A stretch of DNA of 64,000 bases from Nemertoderma westbladi (Eukaryota > Animalia > Xenacoelomorpha): NCBI GenBank assembly GCA_032718475.1, contig JAUCBJ010006976.1, positions 1 through 64,000 of the forward strand. The letters run 5' to 3'. The notes under the pieces were generated by a model. The model did not search any database. It saw nothing but the letters and a program-made list of their open reading frames with translations, and had not been told where the DNA came from. The first letter of the stretch is position 1. The number at the start of each line of letters is the position of its first letter. This document shows, in pieces, positions 18,746 to 64,000 of this stretch. The translations under genes and the position numbers were made by a program.

Positions 18746-18973
18746 TTGCCTACTCTTCCTACCGGTGTTTCATCTGTTCATATCTGCATGTATTCCGGCT
18801 GTGCGGTGCAGTGAGGTTTGAGGTAGTACAGGTAGTAGTAGAGTATAGTGATAGATTTATTTCTATGCGATATCGATGTACCGCTACCGGTACAATACTG
18901 CTGTCCATTATTACACGACCCACTTCAGCGCTTCCAATCAAACAGCTAACTCGATAACATTCTAAACGCGAGA

Positions 18974-20256: not shown

Positions 20257-20377
20257 AAAATGATTCAGGATGAAGATCTTTTCGAACAGGAACGACGGGA
20301 GATGATGGAGAGAATCGATTCTCTGGAGAGCAACACGAGGAATCTCGATGCTAAACTCAAGAATTACGTGGAACAAG
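20257..20377 (+). CDS. MAPK8IP3: JIP3/JIP4 coding exon 2 (121 nt)
   Basis: Acceptor ttattgtctag|, translation KMIQDEDLFEQERREMMERIDSLESNTRNLDAKLKNYVEQ, donor AAG|GTATGA; matches JIP3 KFIEFED..LELKAKNYADQ. Confidence 0.93.
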
Positions 20378-20554
20378 GTATGAGGGAGCCGTTATGGATG
20401 GGGATTTAGCGAAACACAAGTGGGGTGTCGTGCGGCAGAACTGTAAGCCATTTCAACGAACAGTTAATACAGCCATAGAATGATTACAACAGTTCGCCGT
20501 TCAGTTCAGGCGGGAGACCCACAACTAACAATCTGTAACTCTTATTGTTTTTAG

Positions 20555-20625
20555 TTTCACGATTTGAAGATCGGGAACACGATATGAAGAAAGATTATCA
20601 GACGTTGAATACAAGGCACACTGAA
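20555..20625 (+). CDS. MAPK8IP3: JIP3/JIP4 coding exon 3 (71 nt)
   Basis: Branch-like ACTAAC at about 20524, acceptor ttgtttttag|, translation (V)SRFEDREHDMKKDYQTLNTRHTE, donor GAA|GTGAGT; matches JIP3 SRLEERE.EMKKEY..L..RHTE. Confidence 0.93.
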
Positions 20626-23600
20626 GTGAGTAAAAGTTACCGTAATAAATAGCCGACACACTGAAGTGAGTAAAAGTTACCGTAATAAATAGCCGACACA
20701 CTGAAGTGAGTAAAAGTTACCGTAATAAATAGCCGACACACTGAAGTGAGTAAAAGTTACCGTAATAAATAGCCGACACACTGAAGTGAGTAAAAGTTAC
20801 CGTAATAAATAGCCGACACACTGAAGTGAGTAAAAGTTACCGTAATAAATAGCCGACACACTGAAGTGAGTAAAAGTTACCGTAATAAATAGCCGACACA
20901 CTGAAGTGAGTAAAAGTTACCGTAATAAATAGCCGACACACTGAAGTGAGTAAAAGTTACCGTAATAAATAGCCGACACACTGAAGTGAGTAAAAGTTAC
21001 CGTAATAAATAGCCGACACACTGAAGTGAGTAAAAGTTACCGTAATAAATAGCCGACACACTGAAGTGAGTAAAAGTTACCGTAATAAATAGCCGACACA
21101 CTGAAGTGAGTAAAAGTTACCGTAATAAATAGCCGACACACTGAAGTGAGTAAAAGTTACCGTAATAAATAGCCGACACACTGAAGTGAGTAAAAGTTAC
21201 CGTAATAAATAGCCGACACACTGAAGTGAGTAAAAGTTACCGTAATAAATAGCCGACACACTGAAGTGAGTAAAAGTTACCGTAATAAATAGCCGACACA
21301 CTGAAGTGAGTAAAAGTTACCGTAATAAATAGCCGACACACTGAAGTGAGTAAAAGTTACCGTAATAAATAGCCGACACACTGAAGTGAGTAAAAGTTAC
21401 CGTAATAAATAGCCGACACACTGAAGTGAGTAAAAGTTACCGTAATAAATAGCCGACACACTGAAGTGAGTAAAAGTTACCGTAATAAATAGCCGACACA
21501 CTGAAGTGAGTAAAAGTTACCGTAATAAATAGCCGACACACTGAAGTGAGTAAAAGTTACCGTAATAAATAGCCGACACACTGAAGTGAGTAAAAGTTAC
21601 CGTAATAAATAGCCGACACACTGAAGTGAGTAAAAGTTACCGTAATAAATAGCCGACACACTGAAGTGAGTAAAAGTTACCGTAATAAATAGCCGGCACA
21701 CTGAAGTGAGTAAAAGTTACAGGAATAAATAGCCGACACACTGAAGTGAGTAAAAGTTACAGGAATAAATAGCCGACACACTGAAGTGAGTAAAAGTTAC
21801 AGGAATAAATAGCCGACACACTGAAGTGAGTAAAAGTTACAGGAATAAATAGCCGACACACTGAAGTGAGTAAAAGTTACAGGAATAAATAGCCGACACA
21901 CTGAAGTGAGTAAAAGTTACAGGAATAAATAGCCGACACACTGAAGTGAGTAAAAGTTACAGGAATAAATAGCCGACACACTGAAGTGAGTAAAAGTTAC
22001 AGGAATAAATAGCCGACACACTGAAGTGAGTAAAAGTTACAGGAATAAATAGCCGACACACTGAAGTGAGTAAAAGTTACAGGAATAAATAGCCGACACA
22101 CTGAAGTGAGTAAAAGTTACCGTAATAAATAGCCGACACACTGAAGTGAGTAAAAGTTACCGTAATAAATAGCCGACACACTGAAGTGAGTAAAAGTTAC
22201 AGGAATAAATAGCCGACACACTGAAGTGAGTAAAAGTTACCGTAATAAATAGCCGACACACTGAAGTGAGTAAAAGTTACCGTAATAAATAGCCGACACA
22301 CTGAAGTGAGTAAAAGTTACAGGAATAAATAGCCGACACACTGAAGTGAGTAAAAGTTACAGGAATAAATAGCCGACACACTGAAGTGAGTAAAAGTTAC
22401 AGGAATAAATAGCCGACACACTGAAGTGAGTAAAAGTTACAGGAATAAATAGCCGACACACTGAAGTGAGTAAAAGTTACAGGAATAAATAGCCGACACA
22501 CTGAAGTGAGTAAAAGTTACAGGAATAAATAGCCGACACACTGAAGTGAGTAAAAGTTACAGGAATAAATAGCCGACACACTGAAGTGAGTAAAAGTTAC
22601 AGGAATAAATAGCCGACACACTGAAGTGAGTAAAAGTTACAGGAATAAATAGCCGACACACTGAAGTGAGTAAAAGTTACAGGAATAAATAGCCGACACA
22701 CTGAAGTGAGTAAAAGTTACCGTAATAAATAGCCGACACACTGAAGTGAGTAAAAGTTACCGTAATAAATAGCCGACACACTGAAGTGAGTAAAAGTTAC
22801 AGGAATAAATAGCCGACACACTGAAGTGAGTAAAAGTTACCGTAATAAATAGCCGACACACTGAAGTGAGTAAAAGTTACCGTAATAAATAGCCGACACA
22901 CTGAAGTGAGTAAAAGTTACCGTAATAAATAGCCGACACACTGAAGTGAGTAAAAGTTACCGTAATAAATAGCCGACACACTGAAGTGAGTAAAAGTTAC
23001 AGGAATAAATAGCCGGCACACTGAAGTGAGTAAAAGTTACAGGAATAAATAGCCGACACACTGAAGTGAGTAAAAGTTACAGGAATAAATAGCCGACACA
23101 CTGAAGTGAGTAAAAGTTACAGGAATAAATAGCCGACACACTGGAGTGAGTAAAAGTCACCGTAATAAAGAGCCGACACACTGAAGTGAGTAAAAGTCAC
23201 CGTAATAAAGAGCCGACACACTGAAGTGAGTAAAAGTTACAGGAATAAATAGCCGACACACTGAAGTGAGTAAAAGTTACAGGAATAAATAGCCGACACA
23301 CTGAAGTGAGTAAAAGTTACAGGAATAAATAGCCGACACACTGAAGTGAGTAAAAGTTACAGGAATAAATAGCCGACACACTGAAGTGAGTAAAAGTTAC
23401 CGTAATAAATAGCCGACACACTGAAGTGAGTAAAAGTTACAGGAATAAATAGCCGGCACACTGAAGTGAGTAAAAGTTACAGGAATAAATAGCCGGCACA
23501 CTGAAGTGAGTAAAAGTTACAGGAATAAATAGCCGACACACTGAAGTGAGTAAAAGTTACCGTAATAAATAGCCGACACACTGAAGTGAGTAAAAGTTAC

Positions 23601-26600
23601 AGGAATAAATAGCCGGCACACTGAAGTGAGTAAAAGTTACAGGAATAAATAGCCGGCACACTGAAGTGAGTAAAAGTTACCGTAATAAATAGCCGACACA
23701 CTGAAGTGAGTAAAAGTTACCGTAATAAATAGCCGACACACTGAAGTGAGTAAAAGTTACAGGAATAAATAGCCGACACACTGAAGTGAGTAAAAGTTAC
23801 CGTAATAAATAGCCGACACACTGAAGTGAGTAAAAGTCACCGTAATAAAGAGCCGACACACTGAAGTGAGTAAAAGTTACAGGAATAAATAGCCGACACA
23901 CTGAAGTGAGTAAAAGTTACAGGAATAAATAGCCGACACACTGAAGTGAGTAAAAGTTACAGGAATAAATAGCCGACACACTGAAGTGAGTAAAAGTTAC
24001 AGGAATAAATAGCCGACACACTGAAGTGAGTAAAAGTTACAGGAATAAATAGCCGACACACTGAAGTGAGTAAAAGTTACAGGAATAAATAGCCGACACA
24101 CTGAAGTGAGTAAAAGTTACAGGAATAAATAGCCGACACACTGAAGTGAGTAAAAGTTACAGGAATAAATAGCCGACACACTGAAGTGAGTAAAAGTTAC
24201 AGGAATAAATAGCCGACACACTGAAGTGAGTAAAAGTTACAGGAATAAATAGCCGACACACTGAAGTGAGTAAAAGTTACAGGAATAAATAGCCGACACA
24301 CTGAAGTGAGTAAAAGTTACAGGAATAAATAGCCGACACACTGAGGTGAGTAAAAGTTACCGTAATAAATAGCCGACACACTGGAGTGAGTAAAAGTTAC
24401 CGTAATAAATAGCCGACACACTGAAGTGAGTAAAAGTTACCGTAATAAATAGCCGACACACTGAAGTGAGTAAAAGTTACAGGAATAAATAGCCGACACA
24501 CTGAAGTGAGTAAAAGTTACCGTAATAAATAGCCGACACACTGAAGTGAGTAAAAGTTACAGGAATAAATAGCCGACACACTGAAGTGAGTAAAAGTTAC
24601 AGGAATAAATAGCCGACACACTGAAGTGAGTAAAAGTTACATGAATAAATAGCCGACACACTGAAGTGAGTAAAAGTTACAGGAATAAATAGCCGACACA
24701 CTGAAGTGAGTAAAAGTTACAGGAATAAATAGCCGACACACTGAAGTGAGTAAAAGTTACAGGAATAAATAGCCGACACACTGAAGTGAGTAAAAGTTAC
24801 CGTAATAAATAGCCGACACACTGAAGTGAGTAAAAGTTACAGGAATAAATAGCCGACACACTGAAGTGAGTAAAAGTTACAGGAATAAATAGCCGACACA
24901 CTGAAGTGAGTAAAAGTTACAGGAATAAATAGCCGACACACTGAAGTGAGTAAAAGTTACAGGAATAAATAGCCGACACACTGAAGTGAGTAAAAGTTAC
25001 AGGAATAAATAGCCGACACACTGAGGTGAGTAAAAGTTACCGTAATAAATAGCCGACACACTGGAGTGAGTAAAAGTTACCGTAATAAATAGCCGACACA
25101 CTGAAGTGAGTAAAAGTTACCGTAATAAATAGCCGACACACTGAAGTGAGTAAAAGTTACCGTAATAAATAGCCGACACACTGAAGTGAGTAAAAGTTAC
25201 CGTAATAAATAGCCGACACACTGAAGTGAGTAAAAGTTACAGGAATAAATAGCCGACACACTGAAGTGAGTAAAAGTTACCGTAATAAATAGCCGACACA
25301 CTGAAGTGAGTAAAAGTTACAGGAATAAATAGCCGACACACTGAAGTGAGTAAAAGTTACAGGAATAAATAGCCGACACACTGAAGTGAGTAAAAGTTAC
25401 AGGAATAAATAGCCGACACACTGAAGTGAGTAAAAGTTACAGGAATAAATAGCCGACACACTGAAGTGAGTAAAAGTTACAGGAATAAATAGCCGACACA
25501 CTGAAATGAGTAAAAGTTACAGGAATAAATAGCCGACACACTGAAGTGAGTAAAAGTTGCCGTAATAAATAGCCGACACACTGAAGTGAGTAAAAGTTAC
25601 CGTAATAAATAGCCGACACACTGAAGTGAGTAAAAGTTACCGTAATGAATAGCCGACACACTGAAGTGAGTAAAAGTTACAGGAATAAATAGCCGACACA
25701 CTGAAGTGAGTAAAAGTTACCGGAATAAATAGCCGACACACTGAAGTGAGTAAAAGTTACAGGAATAAATAGCCGACACACTGAAGTGAGTAAAAGTTAC
25801 AGGAATAAATAGCCGACACACTGAAGTGAGTAAAAGTTACAGGAATAAATAGCCGGCACACTGAAGTGAGTAAAAGTTACCGTAATAAATAGCCGACACA
25901 CTGAAGTGAGTAAAAGTTACCGTAATAAATAGCCGACACACTGAAGTGAGTAAAAGTTACAGGAATAAATAGCCGGCACACTGAAGTGAGTAAAAGTTAC
26001 AGGAATAAATAGCCGGCACACTGAAGTGAGTAAAAGTTACAGGAATAAATAGCCGACACACTGAAGTGAGTAAAAGTTACCGTAATAAATAGCCGACACA
26101 CTGAAGTGAGTAAAAGTTACCGTAATAAATAGCCGACACACTGAAGTGAGTAAAAGTTACCGTAATAAATAGCCGACACACTGAAGTGAGTAAAAGTTGC
26201 CGTAATAAATAGCCGACACACTGAAGTGAGTAAAAGTTACCGTAATAAATAGCCGACACACTGAAGTGAGTAAAAGTGACAGGAATAAATAGCCGACACA
26301 CTGAAGTGAGTAAAAGTTACCGTAATAAATAGCCGACACACTGAAGTGAGTAAAAGTTACCGTAATAAATAGCCGACACACTGAAGTGAGTAAAAGTTAC
26401 CGGAATAAATAGCCGGCACACTGAAGTGAGTAAAAGTTACCGGAATAAATAGCCGGCACACTGAAGTGAGTAAAAGTTACCGGAATAAATAGCCGGCACA
26501 CTGAAGTGAGTAAAAGTTACAGGAATAAATAGCCGACACACTGAAGTGAGTAAAAGTTACCGTAATAAATAGCCGACACACTGAAGTGAGTAAAAGTTAC

Positions 26601-29600
26601 AGGAATAAATAGCCGACACACTGAAGTGAGTAAAAGTTACAGGAATAAATAGCCGACACACTGAAGTGAGTAAAAGTTACCGTAATAAATAGCCGACACA
26701 CTGAAGTGAGTAAAAGTTACAGGAATAAATAGCTGACACACTGAAGTGAGTAAAAGTTACAGGAATAAATAGCCGACACACTGAAGTGAGTAAAAGTTAC
26801 CGGAATAAATAGCCGGCACACTGAAGTGAGTAAAAGTTACAGGAATAAATAGCCGACACACTGAAGTGAGTAAAAGTTACCGTAATAAATAGCCGACACA
26901 CTGAAGTGAGTAAAAGTTACAGGAATAAATAGCCGACACACTGAAGTGAGTAAAAGTTACCGTAATAAATAGCCGACACACTGAAGTGAGTAAAAGTTAC
27001 CGTAATAAATAGCCGACACACTGAAGTGAGTAAAAGTGACAGGAATAAATAGCCGACACACTGAAGTGAGTAAAAGTTACCGTAATAAATAGCCGACACA
27101 CTGAAGTGAGTAAAAGTTACCGTAATAAATAGCCGACACACTGAAGTGAGTAAAAGTTACCGTAATAAATAGCCGACACACTGAAGTGAGTAAAAGTTAC
27201 CGTAATAAATAGCCGACACACTGAAGTGAGTAAAAGTGACAGGAATAAATAGCCGACACACTGAAGTGAGTAAAAGTGACAGGAATAAATAGCCGACACA
27301 CTGAAGTGAGTAAAAGTTACCGTAATAAATAGCCGACACACTGAAGTGAGTAAAAGTTACCGTAATAAATAGCCGACACACTGAAGTGAGTAAAAGTTAC
27401 CGTAATAAATAGCCGACACACTGAAGTGAGTAAAAGTTACCGTAATAAATAGCCGACACACTGAAGTGAGTAAAAGTGACAGGAATAAATAGCCGACACA
27501 CTGAAGTGAGTAAAAGTTACCGGAATAAATAGCCGACACACTGAAGTGAGTAAAAGTTACCGGAATAAATAGCCGGCACACTGAAGTGAGTAAAAGTTAC
27601 AGGAATAAATAGCCGACACACTGAAGTGAGTAAAAGTTACCGTAATAAATAGCCGACACACTGAAGTGAGTAAAAGTTACAGGAATAAATAGCTGACACA
27701 CTGAAGTGAGTAAAAGTTACAGGAATAAATAGCCGACACACTGAAGTGAGTAAAAGTTACCGTAATAAATAGCCGACACACTGAAGTGAGTAAAAGTTAC
27801 CGTAATAAATAGCCGACACACTGAAGTGAGTAAAAGTTACCGGAATAAATAGCCGGCACACTGAAGTGAGTAAAAGTTACAGGAATAAATAGCCGACACA
27901 CTGAAGTGAGTAAAAGTTACCGTAATAAATAGCCGACACACTGAAGTGAGTAAAAGTTACAGGAATAAATAGCTGACACACTGAAGTGAGTAAAAGTTAC
28001 AGGAATAAATAGCCGACACACTGAAGTGAGTAAAAGTTACCGTAATAAATAGCCGACACACTGAAGTGAGTAAAAGTTACAGGAATAAATAGCTGACACA
28101 CTGAAGTGAGTAAAAGTTACAGGAATAAATAGCCGACACACTGAAGTGAGTAAAAGTTACCGTAATAAATAGCCGACACACTGAAGTGAGTAAAAGTTAC
28201 AGGAATAAATAGCCGACACACTGAAGTGAGTAAAAGTTACAGGAATAAATAGCCGACACACTGAAGTGAGTAAAAGTTACAGGAATAAATAGCCGACACA
28301 CTGAAGTGAGTAAAAGTTACAGGAATAAATAGCCGACACACTGAAGTGAGTAAAAGTTACAGGAATAAATAGCCGACACACTGAAGTGAGTAAAAGTTAC
28401 AGGAATAAATAGCCGACACACTGAAGTGAGTAAAAGTTACAGGAATAAATAGCCGACACACTGAAGTGAGTAAAAGTTACCGTAATAAATAGCCGACACA
28501 CTGAAGTGAGTAAAAGTTACCGTAATAAATAGCCGACACACTGAAGTGAGTAAAAGTTACCGGAATAAATAGCCGGCACACTGAAGTGAGTAAAAGTTAC
28601 AGGAATAAATAGCCGGCACACTGAAGTGAGTAAAAGTTACAGGAATAAATAGCCGGCACACTGAAGTGAGTAAGAGTTACCGTAATAAATAGCCGACACA
28701 CTGAAGTGAGTAAAAGTGACAGGAATAAATAGCCGACACACTGAAGTGAGTAAAAGTTGCCGTAATAAATAGCCGACACACTGAAGTGAGTAAAAGTTAC
28801 CGTAATAAATAGCCGACACACTGAAGTGAGTAAAAGTTACCGGAATAAATAGCCGGCACACTGAAGTGAGTAAAAGTTACAGGAATAAATAGCCGGCACA
28901 CTGAAGTGAGTAAAAGTTGCCGTAATAAATAGCCGACACACTGAAGTGAGTAAAAGTGACAGGAATAAATAGCCGACACACTGAAGTGAGTAAAAGTTGC
29001 CGTAATAAATAGCCGACACACTGAAGTGAGTAAAAGTTACCGTAATAAATAGCCGACACACTGAAGTGAGTAAAAGTTACCGGAATAAATAGCCGACACA
29101 CTGAAGTGAGTAAAAGTTACAGGAATAAATAGCCGGCACACTGAAGTGAGTAAAAGTTACAGGAATAAATAGCCGGCACACTGAAGTGAGTAAAAGTTGC
29201 CGTAATAAATAGCCGACACACTGAAGTGAGTAAAAGTTACCGTAATAAATAGCCGACACACTGAAGTGAGTAAAAGTGACAGGAATAAATAGCCGACACA
29301 CTGAAGTGAGTAAAAGTTACCGTAATAAATAGCCGACACACTGAAGTGAGTAAAAGTTACCGTAATAAATAGCCGACACACTGAAGTGAGTAAAAGTTAC
29401 CGGAATAAATAGCCGGCACACTGAAGTGAGTAAAAGTTACAGGAATAAATAGCCGGCACACTGAAGTGAGTAAAAGTTGCCGTAATAAATAGCCGACACA
29501 CTGAAGTGAGTAAAAGTTACAGGAATAAATAGCTGACACACTGAAGTGAGTAAAGGTTACCGTAATAAATAGCCGACACACTGAAGTGAGTAAAAGTTAC

Positions 29601-32600
29601 CGTAATAAATAGCCGACACACTGAAGTGAGTAAAAGTTACAGGAATAAATAGCTGACACACTGAAGTGAGTAAAAGTTACAGGAATAAATAGCCGACACA
29701 CTGAAGTGAGTAAAAGTTACCGTAATAAATAGCCGACACACTGAAGTGAGTAAAAGTTACAGGAATAAATAGCTGACACACTGAAGTGAGTAAAAGTTAC
29801 AGGAATAAATAGCCGACACACTGAAGTGAGTAAAAGTTACCGTAATAAATAGCCGACACACTGAAGTGAGTAAAAGTTACAGGAATAAATAGCCGACACA
29901 CTGAAGTGAGTAAAAGTTACAGGAATAAATAGCCGACACACTGAAGTGAGTAAAAGTTACAGGAATAAATAGCCGACACACTGAAGTGAGTAAAAGTTAC
30001 AGGAATAAATAGCCGACACACTGAAGTGAGTAAAAGTTACAGGAATAAATAGCCGACACACTGAAGTGAGTAAAAGTTACAGGAATAAATAGCCGACACA
30101 CTGAAGTGAGTAAAAGTTACAGGAATAAATAGCCGACACACTGAAGTGAGTAAAAGTTACAGGAATAAATAGCCGACACACTGAAGTGAGTAAAAGTTAC
30201 AGGAATAAATAGCCGACACACTGAAGTGAGTAAAAGTTACCGTAATAAATAGCCGACACACTGAAGTGAGTAAAAGTTACAGGAATAAATAGCCGACACA
30301 CTGAAGTGAGTAAAAGTTACAGGAATAAATAGCCGACACACTGAAGTGAGTAAAAGTTACCGGAATAAATAGCCGACAAACTGAAGTGAGTAAAAGTTGC
30401 CGTAATAAATAGCCGACACACTGAAGTGAGTAAAAGTTACCGTAATAAATAGCCGACACACTGAAGTGAGTAAAAGTTACCGTAATAAATAGCCGACACA
30501 CTGAAGTGAGTAAAAGTTGCCGTAATAAATAGCCGACACACTGAAGTGAGTAAAAGTTACCGTAATAAATAGCCGACACACTGAAGTGAGTAAAAGTTAC
30601 CGTAATAAATAGCCGACACACTGAAGTGAGTAAAAGTTACCGTAATAAATAGCCGACACACTGAAGTGAGTAAAAGTTACCGTAATAAATAGCCGGCACA
30701 CTGAAGTGAGTAAAAGTTACAGGAATAAATAGCCGACACACTGAAGTGAGTAAAAGTTACAGGAATAAATAGCCGACACACTGAAGTGAGTAAAAGTTAC
30801 AGGAATAAATAGCCGACACACTGAAGTGAGTAAAAGTTACAGGAATAAATAGCCGACACACTGAAGTGAGTAAAAGTTACCGTAATAAATAGCCGACACA
30901 CTGAAGTGAGTAAAAGTTACAGGAATAAATAGCCGACACACTGAAGTGAGTAAAAGTTACAGGAATAAATAGCCGACACACTGAAGTGAGTAAAAGTTAC
31001 CGGAATAAATAGCCGACACACTGAAGTGAGTAAAAGTTACAGGAATAAATAGCCGACACACTGAAGTGAGTAAAAGTTACCGTAATAAATAGCCGACACA
31101 CTGAAGTGAGTAAAAGTTACCGTAATAAATAGCCGACACACTGAAGTGAGTAAAAGTTGCCGTAATAAATAGCCGACACACTGAAGTGAGTAAAAGTTAC
31201 CGTAATAAATAGCCGACACACTGAAGTGAGTAAAAGTTACAGGAATAAATAGCCGACACACTGAAGTGAGTAAAAGTTACAGGAATAAATAGCCGACACA
31301 CTGAAGTGAGTAAAAGTTACCGTAATAAATAGCCGACACACTGAAGTGAGTAAAAGTTACCGTAATAAATAGCCGACACACTGAAGTGAGTAAAAGTTAC
31401 AGGAATAAATAGCCGACACACTGAAGTGAGTAAAAGTTACAGGAATAAATAGCCGACACACTGAAGTGAGTAAAAGTTACAGGAATAAATAGCCGACACA
31501 CTGAAGTGAGTAAAAGTTACCGTAATAAATAGCCGACACACTGAAGTGAGTAAAAGTTACCGTAATAAATAGCCGACACACTGAAGTGAGTAAAAGTTAC
31601 CGTAATAAATAGCCGACACACTGAAGTGAGTAAAAGTTACCGTAATAAATAGCCGACACACTGAAGTGAGTAAAAGTTACCGTAATAAATAGCCGACACA
31701 CTGAAGTGAGTAAAAGTTACCGTAATAAATAGCCGACACACTGAAGTGAGTAAAAGTTACCGTAATAAATAGCCGACACACTGAAGTGAGTAAAAGTTAC
31801 CGTAATAAATAGCCGACACACTGAAGTGAGTAAAAGTTACAGGAATAAATAGCCGGCACACTGAAGTGAGTAAAAGTTACCGGAATAAATAGCCGACACA
31901 CTGAGGTGAGTAAAGGTTACCGTAATAAATAGCCGACACACTGAAGTGAGTAAAAGTTACCGTAATAAATAGCCGACACACTGAAGTGAGTAAAAGTTAC
32001 CGTAATAAATAGCCGACACACTGGAGTGAGTAAAAGTTACCGGAATAAATAGCCGACACACTGAATGAAGTGAGTAAAAGTTACCGTAATAAATAGCCGA
32101 CGCACTGAAGTGAGTAAAAGTTACCGTAATAAATAGCCGACACACTGAAGTGAGTAAAGGTTACCGTAATAAATAGCCGACACACTGAAGTGAGTAAAAG
32201 TTACCGTAATAAATAGCCGACACACTGAAGTGAGTAAAAGTTACCGTAATAAATAGCCGACACACTGGAGTGAGTAAAAGTTACCGTAATAAATAGCCGA
32301 CACACTGAAGTGAGTAAAAGTTACAGGAATAAATAGCCGACACACTGAAGTGAGTAAAAGTTACAGGAATAAATAGCCGACACACTGAAGTGAGTAAAAG
32401 TTACAGGAATAAATAGCCGACACACTGAAGTGAGTAAAAGTTACAGGAATAAATAGCCGACACACTGAAGTGAGTAAAAGTTACAGGAATAAATAGCCGA
32501 CACACTGAAGTGAGTAAAAGTTACAGGAATAAATAGCCGACACACTGAAGTGAGTAAAAGTTACCGTAATAAATAGCCGACACACTGAAGTGAGTAAAAG

Positions 32601-50600: not shown

Positions 50601-53600
50601 AAATAGCCGACACACTGAAGTGAGTAAAAGTTACCGTAATAAATAGCCGGCACACTGAAGTGAGTAAAAGTTACAGGAATAAATAGCCGGCACACTGAAG
50701 TGAGTAAAAGTTACCGTAATAAATAGCCGACACACTGAAGTGAGTAAAAGTTACAGGAATAAATAGCCGACACACTGAAGTGAGTAAAAATTACCGGAAT
50801 AAATAGCCGGCACACTGAAGTGAGTAAAAGTTACAGGAATAAATAGCCGACACACTGAAGTGAGTAAAAGTTACCGTAATAAATAGCCGACACACTGAAG
50901 TGAGTAAAAGTTACAGAAATAAATAGCCGACACACTGAAGTGAGTAAAAGTTACCGGAATAAATAACCGACACACTGAAGTGAGTAAAAGTTACAGGAAT
51001 AAATAGCCGACACACTGAAGTGAGTAAAAGTTACAGGAATAAATAGCCGACACACTGAAGTGAGTAAAAGTTACCGTAATAAATAGCCGACACACTGAAG
51101 TGAATAAAAGTTACAGGAATAAATAGCCGACACACTGAAGTGAGTAAAAGTTACCGTAATAAATAGCCGACACACTGAAGTGAGTAAAAGTTACAGGAAT
51201 AAATAGCCGACACACTGAAGTGAGTAAAAGTTACCGGAATAAATAACCGACACACTGAAGTGAGTAAAAGTTACAGGAATAAATAGCCGACACACTGAAG
51301 TGAGTAAAAGTTACAGGAATAAATAGCCGACACACTGAAGTGAGTAAAAGTTACCGGAATAAATAACCGACACACTGAAGTGAGTAAAAGTTACAGGAAT
51401 AAATAGCCGACACACTGAAGTGAGTAAAAGTTACAGGAATAAATAGCCGACACACTGAAGTGAGTAAAAGTTACAGGAATAAATAGCCGACACACTGAAG
51501 TGAGTAAAAGTTACAGGAATAAATAGCCGACACACTGAAGTGAGTAAAAGTTACAGGAATAAATAGCCGACACACTGAAGTGAGTAAAAGTTACCGTAAT
51601 AAATAGCCGACACACTGAAGTGAGTAAAAGTTACAGGAATAAATAGCCGGCACACTGAAGTGAGTAAAAGTTACAGGAATAAATAGCCGACACACTGAAG
51701 TGAGTAAAAGTTACCGTAATAAATAGCCGACACACTGGAGTGAGTAAAAGTTACCGGAATAAATAGCCGATACACTGAAGTGAGTAAAAGTTACAGGAAT
51801 AAATAGCCGGCACACTGAAGTGAGTAAAAGTTACCGTAATGAATAGCCGACACACTGAAGTGAGTAAAAGTTACAGGAATAAATAGCCGACACACTGAAG
51901 TGAGTAAAAGTTACAGGAATAAATAGCCGACACACTGAAGTGAGTAAAAGTTACAGGAATAAATAGCCGGCACACTGAAGTGAGTAAGAGTTACCGTAAT
52001 AAATAGCCGACACACTGAAGTGAGTAAAAGTTACCGGAATAAATAGCCGACACACTGAAGTGAGTAAAAGTTACAGGAATAAATAGCCGGCACACTGAAG
52101 TGAGTAAGAGTTACCGTAATAAATAGCCGACACACTGAAGTGAGTAAAAGTTACCGTAATAAATAGCCGGCACACTGAAGTGAGTAAAAGTTACAGGAAT
52201 AAATAGCCGGCACACTGAAGTGAGTAAAAGTTTCCGTAATAAATAGCCGGCACACTGAAGTGAGTAAAAGTTACCGTAATAAATAGCCGGCACACTGAAG
52301 TGAGTAAAAGTTACAGGAATAAATAGCCGACACACTGAAGTGAGTAAAAGTTACCGGAATAAATAACCGACACACTGAAGTGAGTAAAAGTTACAGGAAT
52401 AAATAGTCGACACACTGAAGTGAGTAAAAGTTACCGTAATAAATAGCCGACACACTGAAGTGAGTAAAAGTTACCGTAATAAATAGCCGGCACACTGAAG
52501 TGAGTAAAAGTTACAGGAATAAATAGCCGGCACACTGAAGTGAGTAAAAGTTACAGGAATAAATAGCCGACACACTGAAGTGAGTAAAAGTTACAGGAAT
52601 AAATAGCCGACACACTGAAGTGAGTAAAAGTTACCGTAATAAATAGCCGGCACACTGAAGTGAGTAAAAGTTACAGGAATAAATAGCCGGCACACTGAAG
52701 TGAGTAAGAGTTACCGTAATAAATAGCCGACACACTGAAGTGAGTAAAAGTTACCGTAATAAATAGCCGGTACACTGAAGTGAGTAAAAGTTACAGGAAT
52801 AAATAGCCGACACACTGAAGTGAGTAAAAGTTACCGTAATAAATAGCCGGCACACTGAAGTGAGTAAAAGTTACCGTAATAAATAGCCGACACACTGAAG
52901 TGAGTAAAAGTTACCGGAATAAATAGCCGACACACTGGAGTGAGTAAAAGTTACCGGAATAAATAACCGACACACTGAAGTGAGTAAAAGTTACAGGAAT
53001 AAATAGCTGACACACTGTAGTGAGTAAAAGTTACCGTAATAAATAGCCGACACACTGAAGTGAGTAAAAGTTACAGGAATAAATAGCCGACACACTGAAG
53101 TGAGTAAAAGTTACCGTAATAAATAGCCGACACACTGTAGTGAGTAAAAGTTACCGTAATAAATAGCCGACACACTGAAGTGAGTAAAAGTTACAGGAAT
53201 AAATAGCCGACACACTGAAGTGAGTAAAAGTTACAGGAATAAATAGCCGACACACTGAAGTGAGTAAAAGTTACCGTAATAAATAGCCGGCACACTGAAG
53301 TGAGTAAAAGTTACCGTAATAAATAGCCGACACACTGAAGTGAGTAAAAGTTACAGAAATAAATAGCCGACACACTGAAGTGAGTAAAAGTTACAGGAAT
53401 AAATAGCTGACACACTGTAGTGAGTAAAAGTTACCGTAATAAATAGCCGACACACTGAAGTGAGTAAAAGTTACAGGAATAAATAGCCGACACACTGAAG
53501 TGAGTAAAAGTTACCGTAATAAATAGCCGGCACACTGAAGTGAGTAAAAGTTACCGTAATAAATAGCCGACACACTGAAGTGAGTAAAAGTTACAGGAAT

Positions 53601-56600
53601 AAATAGCCGACACACTGAAGTGAGTAAAAATTACCGGAATAAATAGCCGGCACACTGAAGTGAGTAAAAGTTACAGGAATAAATAGCCGACACACTGAAG
53701 TGAGTAAAAGTTACCGTAATAAATAGCCGACACACTGAAGTGAGTAAAAGTTACAGAAATAAATAGCCGACACACTGAAGTGAGTAAAAGTTACCGGAAT
53801 AAATAACCGACACACTGAAGTGAGTAAAAGTTACAGGAATAAATAGCCGACACACTGAAGTGAGTAAAAGTTACAGGAATAAATAGCCGACACACTGAAG
53901 TGAGTAAAAGTTACCGTAATAAATAGCCGACACACTGAAGTGAATAAAAGTTACAGGAATAAATAGCCGACACACTGAAGTGAGTAAAAGTTACCGTAAT
54001 AAATAGCCGACACACTGAAGTGAGTAAAAGTTACAGGAATAAATAGCCGACACACTGAAGTGAGTAAAAGTTACCGGAATAAATAACCGACACACTGAAG
54101 TGAGTAAAAGTTACAGGAATAAATAGCCGACACACTGAAGTGAGTAAAAGTTACAGGAATAAATAGCCGACACACTGAAGTGAGTAAAAGTTACCGGAAT
54201 AAATAACCGACACACTGAAGTGAGTAAAAGTTACAGGAATAAATAGCCGACACACTGAAGTGAGTAAAAGTTACAGGAATAAATAGCCGACACACTGAAG
54301 TGAGTAAAAGTTACAGGAATAAATAGCCGACACACTGAAGTGAGTAAAAGTTACAGGAATAAATAGCCGACACACTGAAGTGAGTAAAAGTTACAGGAAT
54401 AAATAGCCGACACACTGAAGTGAGTAAAAGTTACCGTAATAAATAGCCGACACACTGAAGTGAGTAAAAGTTACAGGAATAAATAGCCGGCACACTGAAG
54501 TGAGTAAAAGTTACAGGAATAAATAGCCGACACACTGAAGTGAGTAAAAGTTACCGTAATAAATAGCCGACACACTGGAGTGAGTAAAAGTTACCGGAAT
54601 AAATAGCCGATACACTGAAGTGAGTAAAAGTTACAGGAATAAATAGCCGGCACACTGAAGTGAGTAAAAGTTACCGTAATGAATAGCCGACACACTGAAG
54701 TGAGTAAAAGTTACAGGAATAAATAGCCGACACACTGAAGTGAGTAAAAGTTACAGGAATAAATAGCCGACACACTGAAGTGAGTAAAAGTTACAGGAAT
54801 AAATAGCCGGCACACTGAAGTGAGTAAGAGTTACCGTAATAAATAGCCGACACACTGAAGTGAGTAAAAGTTACCGGAATAAATAGCCGACACACTGAAG
54901 TGAGTAAAAGTTACAGGAATAAATAGCCGGCACACTGAAGTGAGTAAGAGTTACCGTAATAAATAGCCGACACACTGAAGTGAGTAAAAGTTACCGTAAT
55001 AAATAGCCGGCACACTGAAGTGAGTAAAAGTTACAGGAATAAATAGCCGGCACACTGAAGTGAGTAAAAGTTTCCGTAATAAATAGCCGGCACACTGAAG
55101 TGAGTAAAAGTTACCGTAATAAATAGCCGGCACACTGAAGTGAGTAAAAGTTACAGGAATAAATAGCCGACACACTGAAGTGAGTAAAAGTTACCGGAAT
55201 AAATAACCGACACACTGAAGTGAGTAAAAGTTACAGGAATAAATAGTCGACACACTGAAGTGAGTAAAAGTTACCGTAATAAATAGCCGACACACTGAAG
55301 TGAGTAAAAGTTACCGTAATAAATAGCCGGCACACTGAAGTGAGTAAAAGTTACAGGAATAAATAGCCGGCACACTGAAGTGAGTAAAAGTTACAGGAAT
55401 AAATAGCCGACACACTGAAGTGAGTAAAAGTTACAGGAATAAATAGCCGACACACTGAAGTGAGTAAAAGTTACCGTAATAAATAGCCGGCACACTGAAG
55501 TGAGTAAAAGTTACAGGAATAAATAGCCGGCACACTGAAGTGAGTAAGAGTTACCGTAATAAATAGCCGACACACTGAAGTGAGTAAAAGTTACCGTAAT
55601 AAATAGCCGGTACACTGAAGTGAGTAAAAGTTACAGGAATAAATAGCCGACACACTGAAGTGAGTAAAAGTTACCGTAATAAATAGCCGGCACACTGAAG
55701 TGAGTAAAAGTTACCGTAATAAATAGCCGACACACTGAAGTGAGTAAAAGTTACCGGAATAAATAGCCGACACACTGGAGTGAGTAAAAGTTACCGGAAT
55801 AAATAACCGACACACTGAAGTGAGTAAAAGTTACAGGAATAAATAGCTGACACACTGTAGTGAGTAAAAGTTACCGTAATAAATAGCCGACACACTGAAG
55901 TGAGTAAAAGTTACAGGAATAAATAGCCGACACACTGAAGTGAGTAAAAGTTACCGTAATAAATAGCCGACACACTGTAGTGAGTAAAAGTTACCGTAAT
56001 AAATAGCCGACACACTGAAGTGAGTAAAAGTTACAGGAATAAATAGCCGACACACTGAAGTGAGTAAAAGTTACAGGAATAAATAGCCGACACACTGAAG
56101 TGAGTAAAAGTTACCGTAATAAATAGCCGGCACACTGAAGTGAGTAAAAGTTACCGTAATAAATAGCCGACACACTGAAGTGAGTAAAAGTTACAGGAAT
56201 AAATAGCCGACACACTGAAGTGAGTAAAAGTTACCGTAATAAATAGCCGACACACTGAAGTGAGTAAAAGTTACCGGAATAAATAGCCGACACACTGGAG
56301 TGAGTAAAAGTTACCGGAATAAATAACCGACACACTGAAGTGAGTAAAAGTTACAGGAATAAATAGCCGACACACTGAAGTGAGTAAAAGTTACCGGAAT
56401 AAATAACCGACACACTGAAGTGAGTAAAAGTTACCGGAATAAATAGCCGACACACTGAAGTGAGTAAAAGTTACAGGAATAAATAGCCGACACACTGAAG
56501 TGAGTAAAAGTTACAGGAATAAATAGCCGACACACTGAAGTGAGTAAAAGTTACCGTAATAAATAGCCGACATACTGAAGTGAGTAAAAGTTACAGGAAT

Positions 56601-59600
56601 AAATAGCTGACACACTGAAGTGAGTAAAAGTTACCGTAATAAATAGCCGACACACTGAAGTGAGTAAAAGTTACCGGAATAAATAGCTGACACACTGGAG
56701 TGAGTAAAAGTTACCGTAATAAATAGCCGACACACTGAAGTGAGTAAAAGTTACCGGAATAAATAGCCGACAAACTGAAGTGAGTAAAAGTTACAGGAAT
56801 AAATAGCCGACACACTGAAGTGAGTAAAAGTTACCGTAATAAATAGCCGACACACTGAAGTGAGTAAAAGTTACCGGAATAAATAACCGACACACTGAAG
56901 TGAGTAAAAGTTACCGTAATAAATAGCCGACACACTGAAGTGAGTAAAAGTTACCGGAATAAATAGCCGACACACTGGAGTGAGTAAAAGTTACCGGAAT
57001 AAATAACCGACACACTGAAGTGAGTAAAAGTTACAGGAATAAATAGCCGACACACTGAAGTGAGTAAAAGTTACCGTAATAAATAGCCGACACACTGAAG
57101 TGAGTAAAAGTTACAGGAATAAATAGCCGACACACTGAAGTGAGTAAAAGTTACCGTAATAAATAGCCGACACACTGGAGTGAGTAAAAGTTACCGGAAT
57201 AAATAACCGACACACTGAAGTGAGTAAAAGTTACAGGAATAAATAGCCGACACACTGAAGTGAGTAAAAGTTACCGGAATAAATAACCGACACACTGAAG
57301 TGAGTAAAAGTTACCGGAATAAATAGCCGACACACTGAAGTGAGTAAAAGTTACCGGAATAAATAGCCGACACACTGGAGTGAGTAAAAGTTACCGGAAT
57401 AAATAACCGACACACTGAAGTGAGTAAAAGTTACAGGAATAAATAGCCGAAACACTGAAGTGAGTAAAAGTTACCGGAATAAATAACCGACACACTGAAG
57501 TGAGTAAAAGTTACCGGAATAAATAGCCGACACACTGAAGTGAGTAAAAGTTACAGGAATAAATAGCCGACACACTGAAGTGAGTAAAAGTTACAGGAAT
57601 AAATAGCCGACACACTGAAGTGAGTAAAAGTTACCGTAATAAATAGCCGACACACTGAAGTGAGTAAAAGTTACAGGAATAAATAGCCGACACACTGAAG
57701 TGAGTAAGAGTTACCGTAATAAATAGCCGACACACTGAAGTGAGTAAAAGTTACCGGAATAAATAGCTGACACACTGGAGTGAGTAAAAGTTACCGTAAT
57801 AAATAGCCGACACACTGAAGTGAGTAAAAGTTACCGGAATAAATAGCCGACAAACTGAAGTGAGTAAAAGTTACAGGAATAAATAGCCGACACACTGAAG
57901 TGAGTAAAAGTTACCGGAATAAATAGCCGACACACTGGAGTGAGTAAAAGTTACCGGAATAAATAACCGACACACTGAAGTGAGTAAAAGTTACAGGAAT
58001 AAATAGCCGACACACTGAAGTGAGTAAAAGTTACCGGAATAAATAACCGACACACTGAAGTGAGTAAAAGTTACCGGAATAAATAGCCGACACACTGAAG
58101 TGAGTAAAAGTTACAGGAATAAATAGCCGACACACTGAAGTGAGTAAAAGTTACAGGAATAAATAGCCGACACACTGAAGTGAGTAAAAGTTACCGTAAT
58201 AAATAGCCGACACACTGAAGTGAGTAAAAGTTACAGGAATAAATAGCCGACACACTGAAGTGAGTAAAAGTTACCGTAATAAATAGCCGACACACTGAAG
58301 TGAGTAAAAGTTACCGGAATAAATAGCTGACACACTGGAGTGAGTAAAAGTTACCGTAATAAATAGCCGACACACTGAAGTGAGTAAAAGTTACCGGAAT
58401 AAATAGCCGACAAACTGAAGTGAGTAAAAGTTACAGGAATAAATAGCCGACACACTGAAGTGAGTAAAAGTTACCGTAATAAATAGCCGACACACTGAAG
58501 TGAGTAAAAGTTACCGTAATAAATAGCCGACACACTGAAGTGAGTAAAAGTTACAGGAATAAATAGCCGACACACTGAAGTGAGTAAAAGTTACCGTAAT
58601 AAATAGCCGACACACTGAAGTGAGTAAAAGTTACCGTAATAAATAGCCGACACACTGAAGTGAGTAAAAGTTACCGGAATAAATAGCCGACACACTGAAG
58701 TGAGTAAAAGTTACCGTAATAAATAGCCGACACACTGAAGTGAGTAAAAGTTACCGTAATAAATAGCCGACACACTGAAGTGAGTAAAAGTTACCGGAAT
58801 AAATAGCCGACACACTGAAGTGAGTAAAAGTTACCGTAATAAATAGCCGACACACTGAAGTGAGTAAAAGTTACCGGAATAAATAGCCGGCACACTGAAG
58901 TGAGTAAAAGTTACCGTAATAAATAGCCGACACACTGAAGTGAGTAAAAGTTACCGTAATAAATAGCCGACACACTGAAGTGAGTAAAAGTTACCGTAAT
59001 AAATAGCCGACACACTGAAGTGAGTAAAAGTTACCGTAATAAATAGCCGACACACTGAAGTGAGTAAAAGTTACAGGAATAAATAGCCGACACACTGAAG
59101 TGAGTAAAAGTTACCGTAATAAATAGCCGACACACTGAAGTGAGTAAAAGTTACCGTAATAAATAGCCGACACACTGAAGTGAGTAAAAGTTACAGGAAT
59201 AAATAGCCGACACACTGAAGTGAGTAAAAGTTACCGTAATAAATAGCCGACACACTGAAGTGAGTAAAAGTTACCGTAATAAATAGCCGACACACTGAAG
59301 TGAGTAAAAGTTACCGTAATAAATAGCCGACACACTGAAGTGAGTAAAAGTTACCGTAATAAATAGCCGACACACTGAAGTGAGTAAAAGTTACCGTAAT
59401 AAATAGCCGACACACTGAAGTGAGTAAAAGTTACCGTAATAAATAGCCGACACACTGATGAAGTGAGTAAAAGTTACCGGAATAAATAGCCGACACACTG
59501 AAGTGAGTAAAAGTTACCGTAATAAATAGCCGACACACTGAAGTGAGTAAAAGTTACCGTAATAAATAGCCGACACACTGAAGTGAGTAAAAGTTACCGT

Positions 59601-62600
59601 AATAAATAGCCGACACACTGAAGTGAGTAAAAGTTACCGTAATAAATAGCCGACACACTGAAGTGAGTAAAAGTTACAGGAATAAATAGCCGACACACTG
59701 AAGTGAGTAAAAGTTACAGGAATAAATAGCCGACACACTGAAGTGAGTAAAAGTTACCGTAATAAATAGCCGACACACTGAAGTGAGTAAAAGTTACCGT
59801 AATAAATAGCCGACACACTGAAGTGAGTAAAAGTTACAGGAATAAATAGCCGACACACTGAAGTGAGTAAAAGTTACCGTAATAAATAGCCGACACACTG
59901 AAGTGAGTAAAAGTTACCGTAATAAATAGCCGACACACTGAAGTGAGTAAAAGTTACCGTAATAAATAGCCGACACACTGAAGTGAGTAAAAGTTACCGT
60001 AATAAATAGCCGACACACTGAAGTGAGTAAAAGTTACCGTAATAAATAGCCGACACACTGAAGTGAGTAAAAGTTACCGTAATAAATAGCCGACACACTG
60101 AAGTGAGTAAAAGTTACCGTAATAAATAGCCGACACACTGAAGTGAGTAAAAGTTACAGGAATAAATAGCCGACACACTGAAGTGAGTAAAAGTTACAGG
60201 AATAAATAGCCGACACACTGAAGTGAGTAAAAGTTACCGTAATAAATAGCCGACACACTGAAGTGAGTAAAAGTTACCGTAATAAATAGCCGACACACTG
60301 AAGTGAGTAAAAGTTACCGTAATAAATAGCCGACACACTGAAGTGAGTAAAAGTTACAGGAATAAATAGCCGACACACTGAAGTGAGTAAAAGTTACCGT
60401 AATAAATAGCCGACACACTGGAGTGAGTAAAAGTTACCGGAATAAATAGCCGATACACTGAAGTGAGTAAAAGTTACAGGAATAAATAGCCGGCACACTG
60501 AAGTGAGTAAAAGTTACCGTAATGAATAGCCGACACACTGAAGTGAGTAAAAGTTACAGGAATAAATAGCCGACACACTGAAGTGAGTAAAAGTTACAGG
60601 AATAAATAGCCGACACACTGAAGTGAGTAAAAGTTACAGGAATAAATAGCCGGCACACTGAAGTGAGTAAGAGTTACCGTAATAAATAGCCGACACACTG
60701 AAGTGAGTAAAAGTTACCGGAATAAATAGCCGACACACTGAAGTGAGTAAAAGTTACAGGAATAAATAGCCGGCACACTGAAGTGAGTAAGAGTTACCGT
60801 AATAAATAGCCGACACACTGAAGTGAGTAAAAGTTACCGTAATAAATAGCCGGCACACTGAAGTGAGTAAAAGTTACAGGAATAAATAGCCGGCACACTG
60901 AAGTGAGTAAAAGTTACCATAATAAATAGCCGGCACACTGAAGTGAGTAAAAGTTACCGTAATAAATAGCCGGCACACTGAAGTGAGTAAAAGTTACAGG
61001 AATAAATAGCCGACACACTGAAGTGAGTAAAAGTTACCGGAATAAATAACCGACACACTGAAGTGAGTAAAAGTTACAGGAATAAATAGTCGACACACTG
61101 AAGTGAGTAAAAGTTACCGTAATAAATAGCCGACACACTGAAGTGAGTAAAAGTTACCGTAATAAATAGCCGGCACACTGAAGTGAGTAAAAGTTACAGG
61201 AATAAATAGCCGGCACACTGAAGTGAGTAAAAGTTACAGGAATAAATAGCCGACACACTGAAGTGAGTAAAAGTTACAGGAATAAATAGCCGACACACTG
61301 AAGTGAGTAAAAGTTACCGTAATAAATAGCCGGCACACTGAAGTGAGTAAAAGTTACAGGAATAAATAGCCGGCACACTGAAGTGAGTAAGAGTTACCGT
61401 AATAAATAGCCGACACACTGAAGTGAGTAAAAGTTACCGTAATAAATAGCCGACACACTGAAGAAGTGAGTAAAAGTTACCGTAATAAATAGCCGACACA
61501 CTGAAGTGAGTAAAAGTTACCGGAATAAATAGCTGACACACTGAAGTGAGTAAAAGTTACCGTAATAAATAGCCGACACACTGAAGTGAGTAAAAGTTAC
61601 CGTAATAAATAGCCGACACACTGGAGTGAGTAAAAGTTACCGTAATAAATAGCCGACACACTGAAGTGAGTAAAAGTTACCGTAATAAATAGCCGACACA
61701 CTGGAGTGAGTAAAAGTTACCGGAATAAATAGCCGACACACTGAATGAAGTGAGTAAAAGTTACCGTAATAAATAGCCGACGCACTGAAGTGAGTAAAAG
61801 TTACCGTAATAAATAGCCGACACACTGAAGTGAGTAAAAGTTACCGTAATAAATAGCCGACACACTGAAGTGAGTAAAAGTTACCGGAATAAATAGCCGA
61901 CACACTGAATGAAGTGAGTAAAAGTTACCGTAATAAATAGCCGACGCACTGAAGTGAGTAAAAGTTACCGTAATAAATAGCCGACACACTGAAGTGAGTA
62001 AAAGTTACAGGAATAAATAGCCGACACACTGAAGTGAGTAAAAGTTACAGGAATAAATAGCCGACACACTGAAGTGAGTAAAAGTTACAGGAATAAATAG
62101 CCGACACACTGAAGTGAGTAAAAGTTACCGTAATAAATAGCCGGCACACTGAAGTGAGTAAAAGTTACCGTAATAAATAGCCGACACACTGAAGTGAGTA
62201 AAAGTTACCGTAATAAATAGCCGACACACTGAAGTGAGTAAAAGTTACAGGAATAAATAGCCGACACACTGAAGTGAGTAAAAGTTACCGTAATAAATAG
62301 CCGACACACTGAAGTGAGTAAAAGTTACAGGAATAAATAGCCGACACACTGAAGTGAGTAAAAGTTACCGTAATAAATAGCCGACACACTGAAGTGAGTA
62401 AAAGTTACAGGAATAAATAGCCGACACACTGAAGTGAGTAAAAGTTACCGGAATAAATAACCGACACACTGAAGTGAGTAAAAGTTACAGGAATAAATAG
62501 CCGACACACTGAAGTGAGTAAAAGTTACAGGAATAAATAGCCGACACACTGAAGTGAGTAAAAGTTACCGTAATAAATAGCCGACACACTGAAGTGAGTA

Positions 62601-64000
62601 AAAGTTACAGGAATAAATAGCCGACACACTGAAGTGAGTAAAAGTTACCGTAATAAATAGCCGACACACTGCAGTGAGTAAAAGTTACCGGAATAAATAG
62701 CCGACACACTGAAGTGAGTAAAAGTTACCGGAATAAATAGCCGACACACTGAAGTGAGTAAAAGTTACCGTAATAAATAGCCGACACACTGAAGTGAGTA
62801 AAAGTTACCGTAATAAATAGCCGACACACTGAAGTGAGTAAAAGTTACCGTAATAAATAGCCGACACACTGAAGTGAGTAAAAGTTACCGGAATAAATAG
62901 CCGACACACTGAAGTGAGTAAAAGTTACCGGAATAAATAGCCGACACACTGAAGTGAGTAAAGGTTACCGTAATAAATAGCCGACACACTGAAGTGAGTA
63001 AAAGTTACCGTAATAAATAGCCGACACACTGAAGTGAGTAAAAGTTACCGTAATAAATAGCCGACACACTGAAGTGAGTAAAAGTTACCGGAATAAATAG
63101 CCGACACACTGAAGTGAGTAAAAGTTACCGTAATAAATAGCCGACACACTGAAGTGAGTAAAAGTTACCGTAATAAATAGCCGACACACTGAAGTGAGTA
63201 AAAGTTACAGGAATAAATAGCCGACACACTGAAGTGAGTAAAATTTACCGTAATAAATAGCCGACACACTGAAGTGAGTAAAAGTTACCGGAATAAATAG
63301 CCGACACACTGAAGTGAGTAAAAGTTACCGTAATAAATAGCCGACACACATGAAGTGAGTAAAAGTTACCGTAATAAATAGCCGACACACTGAAGTGAGT
63401 AAAAGTTACAGGAATAAATAGCCGACACACTGAAGTGAGTAAAAGTTACCGTAATAAATAGCCGACACACTGAAGTGAGTAAAAGTTACAGGAATAAATA
63501 GCCGACACACTGAAGTGAGTAAAAGTTACCGTAATAAATAGCCGACACACTGAAGTGAGTAAAAGTTACAGGAATAAATAGCCGACACACTGAAGTGAGT
63601 AAAAGTTACCGGAATAAATAACCGACACACTGAAGTGAGTAAAAGTTACAGGAATAAATAGCCGACACACTGAAGTGAGTAAAAGTTACAGGAATAAATA
63701 GCCGACACACTGAAGTGAGTAAAAGTTACCGTAATAAATAGCCGACACACTGAAGTGAGTAAAAGTTACAGGAATAAATAGCCGACACACTGAAGTGAGT
63801 AAAAATTACCGGAATAAATAGCCGGCACACTGAAGTGAGTAAAAGTTACAGGAATAAATAGCCGACACACTGAAGTGAGTAAAAGTTACAGGAATAAATA
63901 GCCAACACACTGAAGTGAGTAAAAGTTACAGGAATAAATAGCCGACACACTGAAGTGAGTAAAAGTTACAGGAATAAATAGCCGACACACTGAATTGAGT
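20617..64000 (+). repeat. Intronic 40-bp satellite array (>43 kb, ~1,080 units, runs off the window) derived from the JIP3 exon 3 donor junction
   Basis: Unit CACACTGAA|GTGAGTAAAAGTTAC(CGT/AGG/CGG)AATAAATAGCCG(A/G); the first unit overlaps the last 9 nt of exon 3. Confidence 0.98.

Follow-up and report, generated by a model that had tools for sequence, protein, structure and literature searches.

A satellite-sized array of more than 43 kb built from the 5' splice site of a JIP3/4 gene in Nemertoderma westbladi

Introduction

Tandem repeats that contain 5' splice sites (donors) are known from several genes. In intron 7 of human F7, the first unit of a 37-bp variable-number tandem repeat (VNTR) spans the exon-intron boundary and identical donors continue into the intron, with the most upstream donor winning in an analysis of 50 constructs (PMC1557585). 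Further donor repeats, cited in that work, lie in 6-16 (25 pseudo-sites), CBS intron 13 (15-20), LMNB2 (10-15), and PDGF (16-18). In intron 18 of human ABCA7, a 25-bp VNTR of 12-440 copies (PMC13747324) begins at and includes the donor GT; its length is very variable, and low-level use of the second donor yields an out-of-frame product (PMC5954066, PMC13747324), while long alleles show lower expression and more exon skipping (PMC5954066). Here, we analyse a 64,000-nt stretch of DNA (hereafter the window) from the xenacoelomorph Nemertoderma westbladi (NCBI GenBank assembly GCA_032718475.1, contig JAUCBJ010006976.1, positions 1 to 64,000 of the forward strand), in which a donor array of at least 1,083 units begins at the end of exon 3 of a JIP3/4 gene.

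Satellite DNA is a component of the giant introns of Drosophila Y-linked genes. These gigantic genes carry introns on the megabase scale (PMC11207136). Long tandem repeats with an excess of donors are also found in the chicken LL2R "lumpy loops" RNA, which gathers small nuclear ribonucleoproteins (snRNPs) in chicken oocytes and for which multiple U1 loading, slow transcription, and snRNP condensates have been proposed (bioRxiv 10.64898/2026.03.19.712899). U1 bound at authentic or cryptic donors, moreover, suppresses polyadenylation [poly(A)] signals over ~500-1,000 nt (PMC5499120).

Results

The array and its unit

Tandem Repeats Finder returned positions 20617-64000 as one array of 40-nt period (1083.4 copies, 96% matches, score 77157), and unit parsing resolved this into 1,083 complete units and a 15-nt tail, i.e., 43.4 kb; as the array runs off the end of the window, the unit count is a lower bound. 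A first-pass annotation, made from the letters alone, had described an array of about 1,080 copies and more than 43 kb starting within JIP3 exon 3, with a unit comprising the last 9 exonic and first 31 intronic nt. Both the extent and, via the exon coordinates, the makeup of the unit are borne out. Units are 40 nt long in 1,068 cases and 41-44 nt in the other 15. We distinguished 60 unit types, two of which dominate (353 and 344 exact copies) and are told apart at unit positions 25 and 27; no differences occur among the first 26 units, and 15 of the 40 unit positions are invariant.

The GT at the donor position is present in 1,081/1,083 units, and the full GTGAGT in 1,076/1,083, in the sense direction. 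By eye, GAA/GTGAGT (the slash marking the cut) agrees with the consensus MAG/guragu, as quoted in PMC1557585, at 7 of 9 positions. The variant donors listed at first pass were recovered as well, GAG/GTGAGT in eight units and GAA/GTAAGT in two. GTRAG motifs reach a density of 49.7 per 2 kb, and no acceptor-like site was found in the array under a simple rule (YAG with at least 9 pyrimidines among the 12 upstream positions). No sense-strand coding frame of more than 24 aa occurs in the array. Folding of the array RNA was no better than that of shuffled sequences (z = -0.76 and -0.25), and no structure that would hide the later donors was found.

Nearly every unit also contains AATAAA. The hexamer occurs 1,080 times in the array in total, which amounts to 24.9 per kb versus 1.26 per kb upstream; in three non-array stretches, only 3-14% of 31-nt stretches contain it, and none do in intron 2. 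The first AATAAA is followed directly by an in-frame TAG, such that read-through, or use of any later donor, would end the protein at 200 aa (HTE-VSKSYRNK and stop). The AATAAA repeated from unit to unit, the absence of acceptor-like sites, and the stop awaiting later donors had all been overlooked at first pass.

The host gene and use of its first donor

Exons 1-3 (Table 1) sum to 576 nt and form an open frame of 192 aa ending in RHTE in phase 0. Homologue figures refer to the best 120 of 640 matches, whose named top entries are mainly fish JIP4, alongside a number of JIP3 and nematode sequences (~53-66% identity); no full-length protein of the same organism is among these 120. The gene has the N-terminal RH1 domain and the coiled coil continuing as RHTE-MIHxYMEH that mark JIP3/JIP4 (MAPK8IP3/SPAG9); the LZII, RH2, and WD40 domains of such proteins would be encoded beyond the window. 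After RHTE, 95/120 homologues read MI(H/Q), the general form being RHTE-MI(H/Q)xY, 8/120 read RHTE-V and then unrelated text, 2/120 match elsewhere, and 15/120 did not fit the pattern, counts that are not independent since the homologues are mutually related. The RHTE-V entries have the appearance of gene models that would read on into a GT intron.

Splicing was followed in sequencing run X4, which is not recorded as RNA and was taken as RNA-like from its own coverage pattern; it comes from another sample and another study than the DNA runs X1, X2, and X3. A single X4 contig (3,296 nt, depth 71.7) joins exons 1, 2, and 3, with introns 1 and 2 removed at GT..AG. The unique parts of the introns are uncovered in X4, and the joined exon form was not seen in the three DNA runs. 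This contig aligns, with one differing letter, as far as position 20629, beyond which it holds another 2,742 nt. Translated by hand from 30 letters of this continuation, its loose end reads, in frame, x-IHTYMEHIER, in agreement with the homologue continuation after RHTE, i.e., with a conserved exon 4. The exon 3-exon 4 joint contains no 40-nt insert, and donor 1 was therefore used.

A shifted donor at +5 (GTGA/GTAAAA) was considered and judged unlikely; the single mismatch, which is not listed as an internal difference and was thus placed at the end of the exon 3 piece, falls where homologues have Met. The gene is live, and the transcript observed, in one contig of one RNA-like run, uses the first donor. 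The protein does continue past RHTE, as proposed at first pass, and the contig, by entering exon 4, is at odds with the truncated pseudogene that had been held out as the counter-case. First-donor use, also predicted there, is upheld by the missing 40-nt insert, though such an arrangement was already known and first-donor choice already demonstrated for F7 (PMC1557585). X4 contigs do not cover the repeat unit past 20629 (the last-bin depth of 27.2 is that of the exon contig alone); contig assembly drops rare forms, so intron RNA, later-donor use, and a short isoform are all compatible with this gap.

Copy number and length variation

In the short-read run X1, unit contigs reach depths of 10,190 (B type) and of 9,261 and 9,778 (A type) over single-copy flanks of 24.1 and 26.1. 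These ratios give 355-423 copies per main type versus 377-384 matching words in the window, and imply a total of 1,017-1,191 units (41-48 kb) per haploid genome, single-contig depth being a rough measure of copy number; the A:B ratio also agrees with the assembled array. Summed depth was discarded as a measure, as it ranged from 104 to 1,845 in X1, and single-contig depths were used in its place. X1 may be the assembled sample itself, in which case the agreement checks the assembly and not a second individual. With its total so close to the assembled count, the window probably contains nearly the whole array, and little room is left for other large arrays of the unit at unrelated loci, an outcome that had been raised at first pass as a sign of insertion. 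The array is real and probably single-locus.

The other two DNA runs gave different counts. In X3, the first unit type forms a single exact 70-nt loop whose depth of 1,546, versus 33-38, corresponds to ~40-47 copies, whereas X2 yielded 652 contigs and, on the most cautious reading, at least ~316 units. A further run, X5, yielded no contigs here. Against the ~1,100 units of X1, the series is therefore at least ~316 and ~45, and the latter two runs carry one sample label. Four changes and a 7-nt gap distinguish the intron 2 flank in X2, none of which are present in X3; the discrepancy could stem from library bias or from a label shared by different individuals. The counts suggest that array length may vary widely between individuals. 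Raw reads showing only a short array had been named at first pass as a refuting outcome; X1 depth points to the assembled length, X3 to a possible short form.

Variation along the unit

Near-universal retention of the GT, stressed in the first-pass annotation, holds as a count but not as a sign of selection, for which it was dropped: the GT pair is no more conserved than base-matched sites (p = 0.72 by alleles, 0.32 by copies). Donor positions +1 to +6 carry 5 distinct mutations (alleles), an ordinary number (p = 0.37), positions -3 to +6 are unremarkable (p = 0.60 and 0.35), and the AATAAA sites alone give p = 0.16 and 0.029. When the intronic donor hexamer and AATAAA were taken together, base-matched permutation returned p = 0.0016 (copies), 0.004 (log copies), and 0.096 (alleles). 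Values as low were found for 3/580 window pairs and 1/40 rotations, and the deficit recurs in both halves of the array (4/580 and 9/580 window pairs as low); a version of the test with the 9-nt donor was weaker (45/1,040). The test is post hoc, with many versions tried, on one array whose copies have a common history. The low variation of the donor and AATAAA hexamers, which rank near the bottom of all 6-mers of the unit in this respect (post hoc, p ~0.005), is a hint, a lead toward constraint.

The direction of change was also compared. Variants from A/T to G/C have spread further than the reverse (median 8 versus 2 copies, p = 0.026), with p = 0.14 once sites 25 and 27 and the donor are left out. 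Restricting the comparison to G/C-to-A/T changes leaves no clear deficit of donor variants (p = 0.06-0.10). The higher copy numbers reached by A/T-to-G/C variants are what GC-biased conversion would give.

Origin and growth

Within the array, identical runs as long as 66 units occur more than once, versus 7-9 units in 5 shuffles, and duplications of 18-66 units are nested within one another. This is the pattern expected from unequal exchange, which is to that extent partly shown. As the unit is cut from an authentic donor, on the evidence of the spliced X4 contig and the homologue continuation, the array was likely seeded locally at the exon 3 donor, in line with the local origin proposed at first pass.

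Replication slippage is one model for the origin of minisatellites. One contig of X1, 461 nt long and at a depth of 15.5, runs along the unit and exits into unique DNA right after CACA, and the exon 3 end and this exit have in common both CACA and a G two bases before it. It is the one unique-sequence junction among the pieces listed, junction contigs overlapping the repeat by ~30 nt and thus being liable to escape placement. The exit may represent the 3' end of the array, with the CACA pair as the candidate slippage seed; given its low depth, the contig could also mark the end in a single haplotype or an isolated copy at another place.

Table 1. Features of the JIP3/4 locus and the donor array, in window coordinates
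Feature	Position	Strand	Remarks
JIP3/4 coding exon 1, RH1 domain	18974..19357	+	Pfam RH1 (PF09744) 2e-16; JIP3/JIP4 homologues; X4 contig 25 covers from 19000
Intron 1	19358..20256	+	899 nt, GT..AG; absent from X4 spliced contig; holds dispersed repeat
Exon 2	20257..20377	+	Included in X4 spliced contig
Intron 2	20378..20554	+	177 nt, GT..AG; absent from X4 spliced contig
Exon 3	20555..20625	+	71 nt; ends RHTE in phase 0
Whole array	20617..64000	+	1,083 units, two main types, nested internal duplications, no end inside window
First 40-bp unit	20617..20656	+	9 exonic + 31 intronic nt
CACA, likely direct repeat seeding first duplication	20617..20620	+	Same CACA phase at X1 exit; putative role
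True 5' splice site GAA/GTGAGT, first donor of array	20623..20631	+	Cut 20625/20626; X4 contig
First AATAAA	20644..20649	+	Intron +19 to +24; in 1,078/1,083 units
In-frame TAG	20650..20652	+	Read-through or later-donor product would end at 200 aa

Neighbouring features

Intron 1 contains an AT-rich dispersed repeat (~19490-20200), with a summed depth of up to ~2,600 in the DNA runs. A second RH1-domain exon lies 18 kb upstream of the gene (952-1167, plus strand; Pfam 3.8e-09) and ends at the same intron position. It has 23% identity to JIP3 exon 1, which rules out a recent intact JIP3 copy, and the X4 JIP3 contig did not point there; it is probably a diverged RH1-family neighbour. On the minus strand, a stop-free frame of ~1,013 aa (12314-15355) contains coding tandem repeats rich in asparagine, valine, and glycine (13183-15151), followed by a fibrinogen C-terminal domain (Pfam 5.9e-13). 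A reverse transcriptase of the long interspersed nuclear element (LINE) type is encoded at 6584-8626 on the minus strand (RVT_1, 9e-29), and related fragments occur at 3905-4330, 11092-11701, and 18590-18769. Reverse transcriptase-like pieces and a GIY-YIG domain (1.1e-07) at ~1990-5995 on the plus strand, split by a LINE fragment, can be read as a broken Penelope-like element. Three small minisatellites (9067-9441, 10784-11038, and 17153-17381) have units of 31, 67, and 70-82 bp, none at an identified exon junction.

Discussion

We consider the array to be a locally seeded, donor-spanning minisatellite that has grown to satellite size and is carried as a tolerated passenger in a live JIP3/4 gene, the first donor of which is used; we place the probability of this reading at roughly 0.64. 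The scheme would begin with the exon 3/intron 3 junction, of which the repeat unit consists, and a first duplication through slippage between two CACA copies 40 nt apart, the upstream one at the exon end. Unequal exchange would then have enlarged the array. With donor 1 joined to exon 4, as in the one RNA-like run, the first donor may win because it comes first, as in human F7, and defines the 71-nt exon, while products of later donors would meet the unit-1 stop and be degraded. Each AATAAA lies 19 nt behind a U1 site, and the ~1,080 such signals would thus fail to end the transcript through telescripting. Since each poly(A) signal would carry its own U1 site, and U1 suppresses signals nearby, the unit could expand. 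Array length would differ widely among individuals. Heavy local loading of U1 on the nascent RNA would likely be a side effect.

Several points weigh against this. (i) The array may not be harmless, given that selection usually acts against AATAAA close to donors (PMC5499120) and that expression falls with long ABCA7 alleles (PMC5954066). (ii) Of the 1,379 variant letters, only 12 fall in the intronic donor hexamer and AATAAA (12 sites together), and indels fall on the exonic side in 15/15 indel units, keeping the donor-to-AATAAA spacing constant, a hint of constraint. (iii) X2 and X3 share a label yet give at least ~316 and ~45 units, so the length polymorphism may be a library or filter effect. 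(iv) The X4 sample differs from that of the 43-kb allele, and splicing was observed in X4 only.

Points of the second kind would be accounted for if the array were a selected U1/poly(A) attenuator: when U1 is limiting, cleavage within the array would release a 200-aa RH1 fragment of JIP3 and so tune the full-length protein. AATAAA is present in 1,078 units, directly followed in unit 1 by the in-frame TAG, at a frequency far from the 3-14% of 31-nt stretches off the array (three stretches) and its absence from intron 2, and the two hexamers are quiet at constant spacing. The test behind that quietness, however, is post hoc and on a single genealogy, mutation or conversion bias may account for part of it, selection on one unit in a thousand should be very weak, and a ~45-unit allele may exist. 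We therefore hold an attenuator to be unlikely. An extended form, in which ~1,080 self-protecting cassettes of U1 site and AATAAA are under selection as a U1-dose-sensitive switch between JIP3 and the 200-aa RH1 product, together with a local snRNP body, is slightly less likely again; if true, natural alleles of ~45 and ~1,100 units would be a ready dose series for that switch. A short allele of ~40-47 units, as suggested by X3, fits a passenger better than a fixed device.

Length variation, possibly more than 20-fold, also weighs against the idea that the long array seeds a local snRNP condensate or delays transcription of JIP3. In its favour are 49.7 GTRAG per 2 kb, ~10x the density in chicken LL2R (counting methods differ), with no acceptor-like site and no unusual RNA structure to mask the donors. 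However, fly Y genes have introns of megabase size (PMC11207136), next to which 43 kb is small, and we regard such a role as improbable. A mammalian cell contains ~10^6 U1. With ~10^3 sites per nascent RNA, a cell-wide U1 sponge, as floated at first pass along with a condensate seed and a delay device, is weak on numbers and unlikely.

It is also conceivable that the long allele is weak or null, i.e., that the spliced RNA derives from short-array individuals and that transcripts of the 43-kb version are mis-spliced or truncated. The RNA-like run is from another sample and study, and ABCA7 offers a parallel, with lower expression and more exon skipping from long alleles (PMC5954066). With X1 averaging ~1,100 units per haploid genome, though, two long alleles are probable, or else one of double length; exons 1-3 are intact; and hundreds of copies are also present in X2, another sample. 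This account is a shade more improbable than a condensate or delay element. Finally, an artefact of assembly is very improbable, as is a chance match to the junction by a satellite inserted from elsewhere; both are largely refuted. In their favour, X3 yields only ~45 copies, and contigs break at branch points where other flanks could be missed. Against them stand the nested duplications, the 60 unit types, and an X1 depth and A:B ratio matching the assembly; the unit also codes for HTE, the conserved end of exon 3, and total depth leaves little space for other large arrays.

As a tolerated passenger, the array is closest to the F7 repeat, with which it has in common a boundary-spanning first unit, intact sense donors continuing downstream into the intron, and use of the most upstream donor (in one X4 contig). 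F7 has 5-9 copies versus at least 1,083 here, and the satellite-scale duplication structure is found in the JIP3 array only; AATAAA in each unit is likewise a feature of the JIP3 array, unmentioned for F7 in the accessible portions of PMC1557585. By these shared features, the array belongs to the F7 kind, differing in scale and in the pairing of donor with AATAAA. ABCA7 resembles it in a repeat that starts at the donor GT, but its unit is C-rich and without exonic bases, and the VNTR reaches at most ~11 kb versus at least 43 kb; the expression effects of ABCA7 are measured, whereas the JIP3 array is known here from sequence and contigs.

LL2R and the JIP3 array are alike in being long tandem repeats in which donors far outnumber acceptors (49.7 GTRAG per 2 kb in the JIP3 array, >5 predicted donors per 2 kb in LL2R). 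LL2R, however, is an independent non-coding transcription unit of ~160 kb with a retrotransposon promoter and is depleted of poly(A) signals, whereas the JIP3 array sits in an intron, originates from an exon junction of its own coding host gene, and carries AATAAA in almost every unit. Drosophila Y-linked genes have a greatly enlarged intron in common with JIP3, but on a megabase scale, and the accessible portions of PMC11207136 do not describe them as built from donors. In the literature searched, whose reach excluded most subscription papers, no donor array of more than 440 copies was found, and the JIP3 array is ~2.5x larger than any there.

Even as a passenger, the array means that a conserved gene can carry more than 1,000 copies of its own donor and more than 1,000 AATAAA in one intron. 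First-donor choice, and protection by U1 from early cleavage, would thus be stretched past the 5-440 copies described so far. If short and long alleles do coexist in N. westbladi, they would provide a natural series on the tolerance of decoy donors, on U1-dense nuclear bodies, and on the saturation of telescripting.

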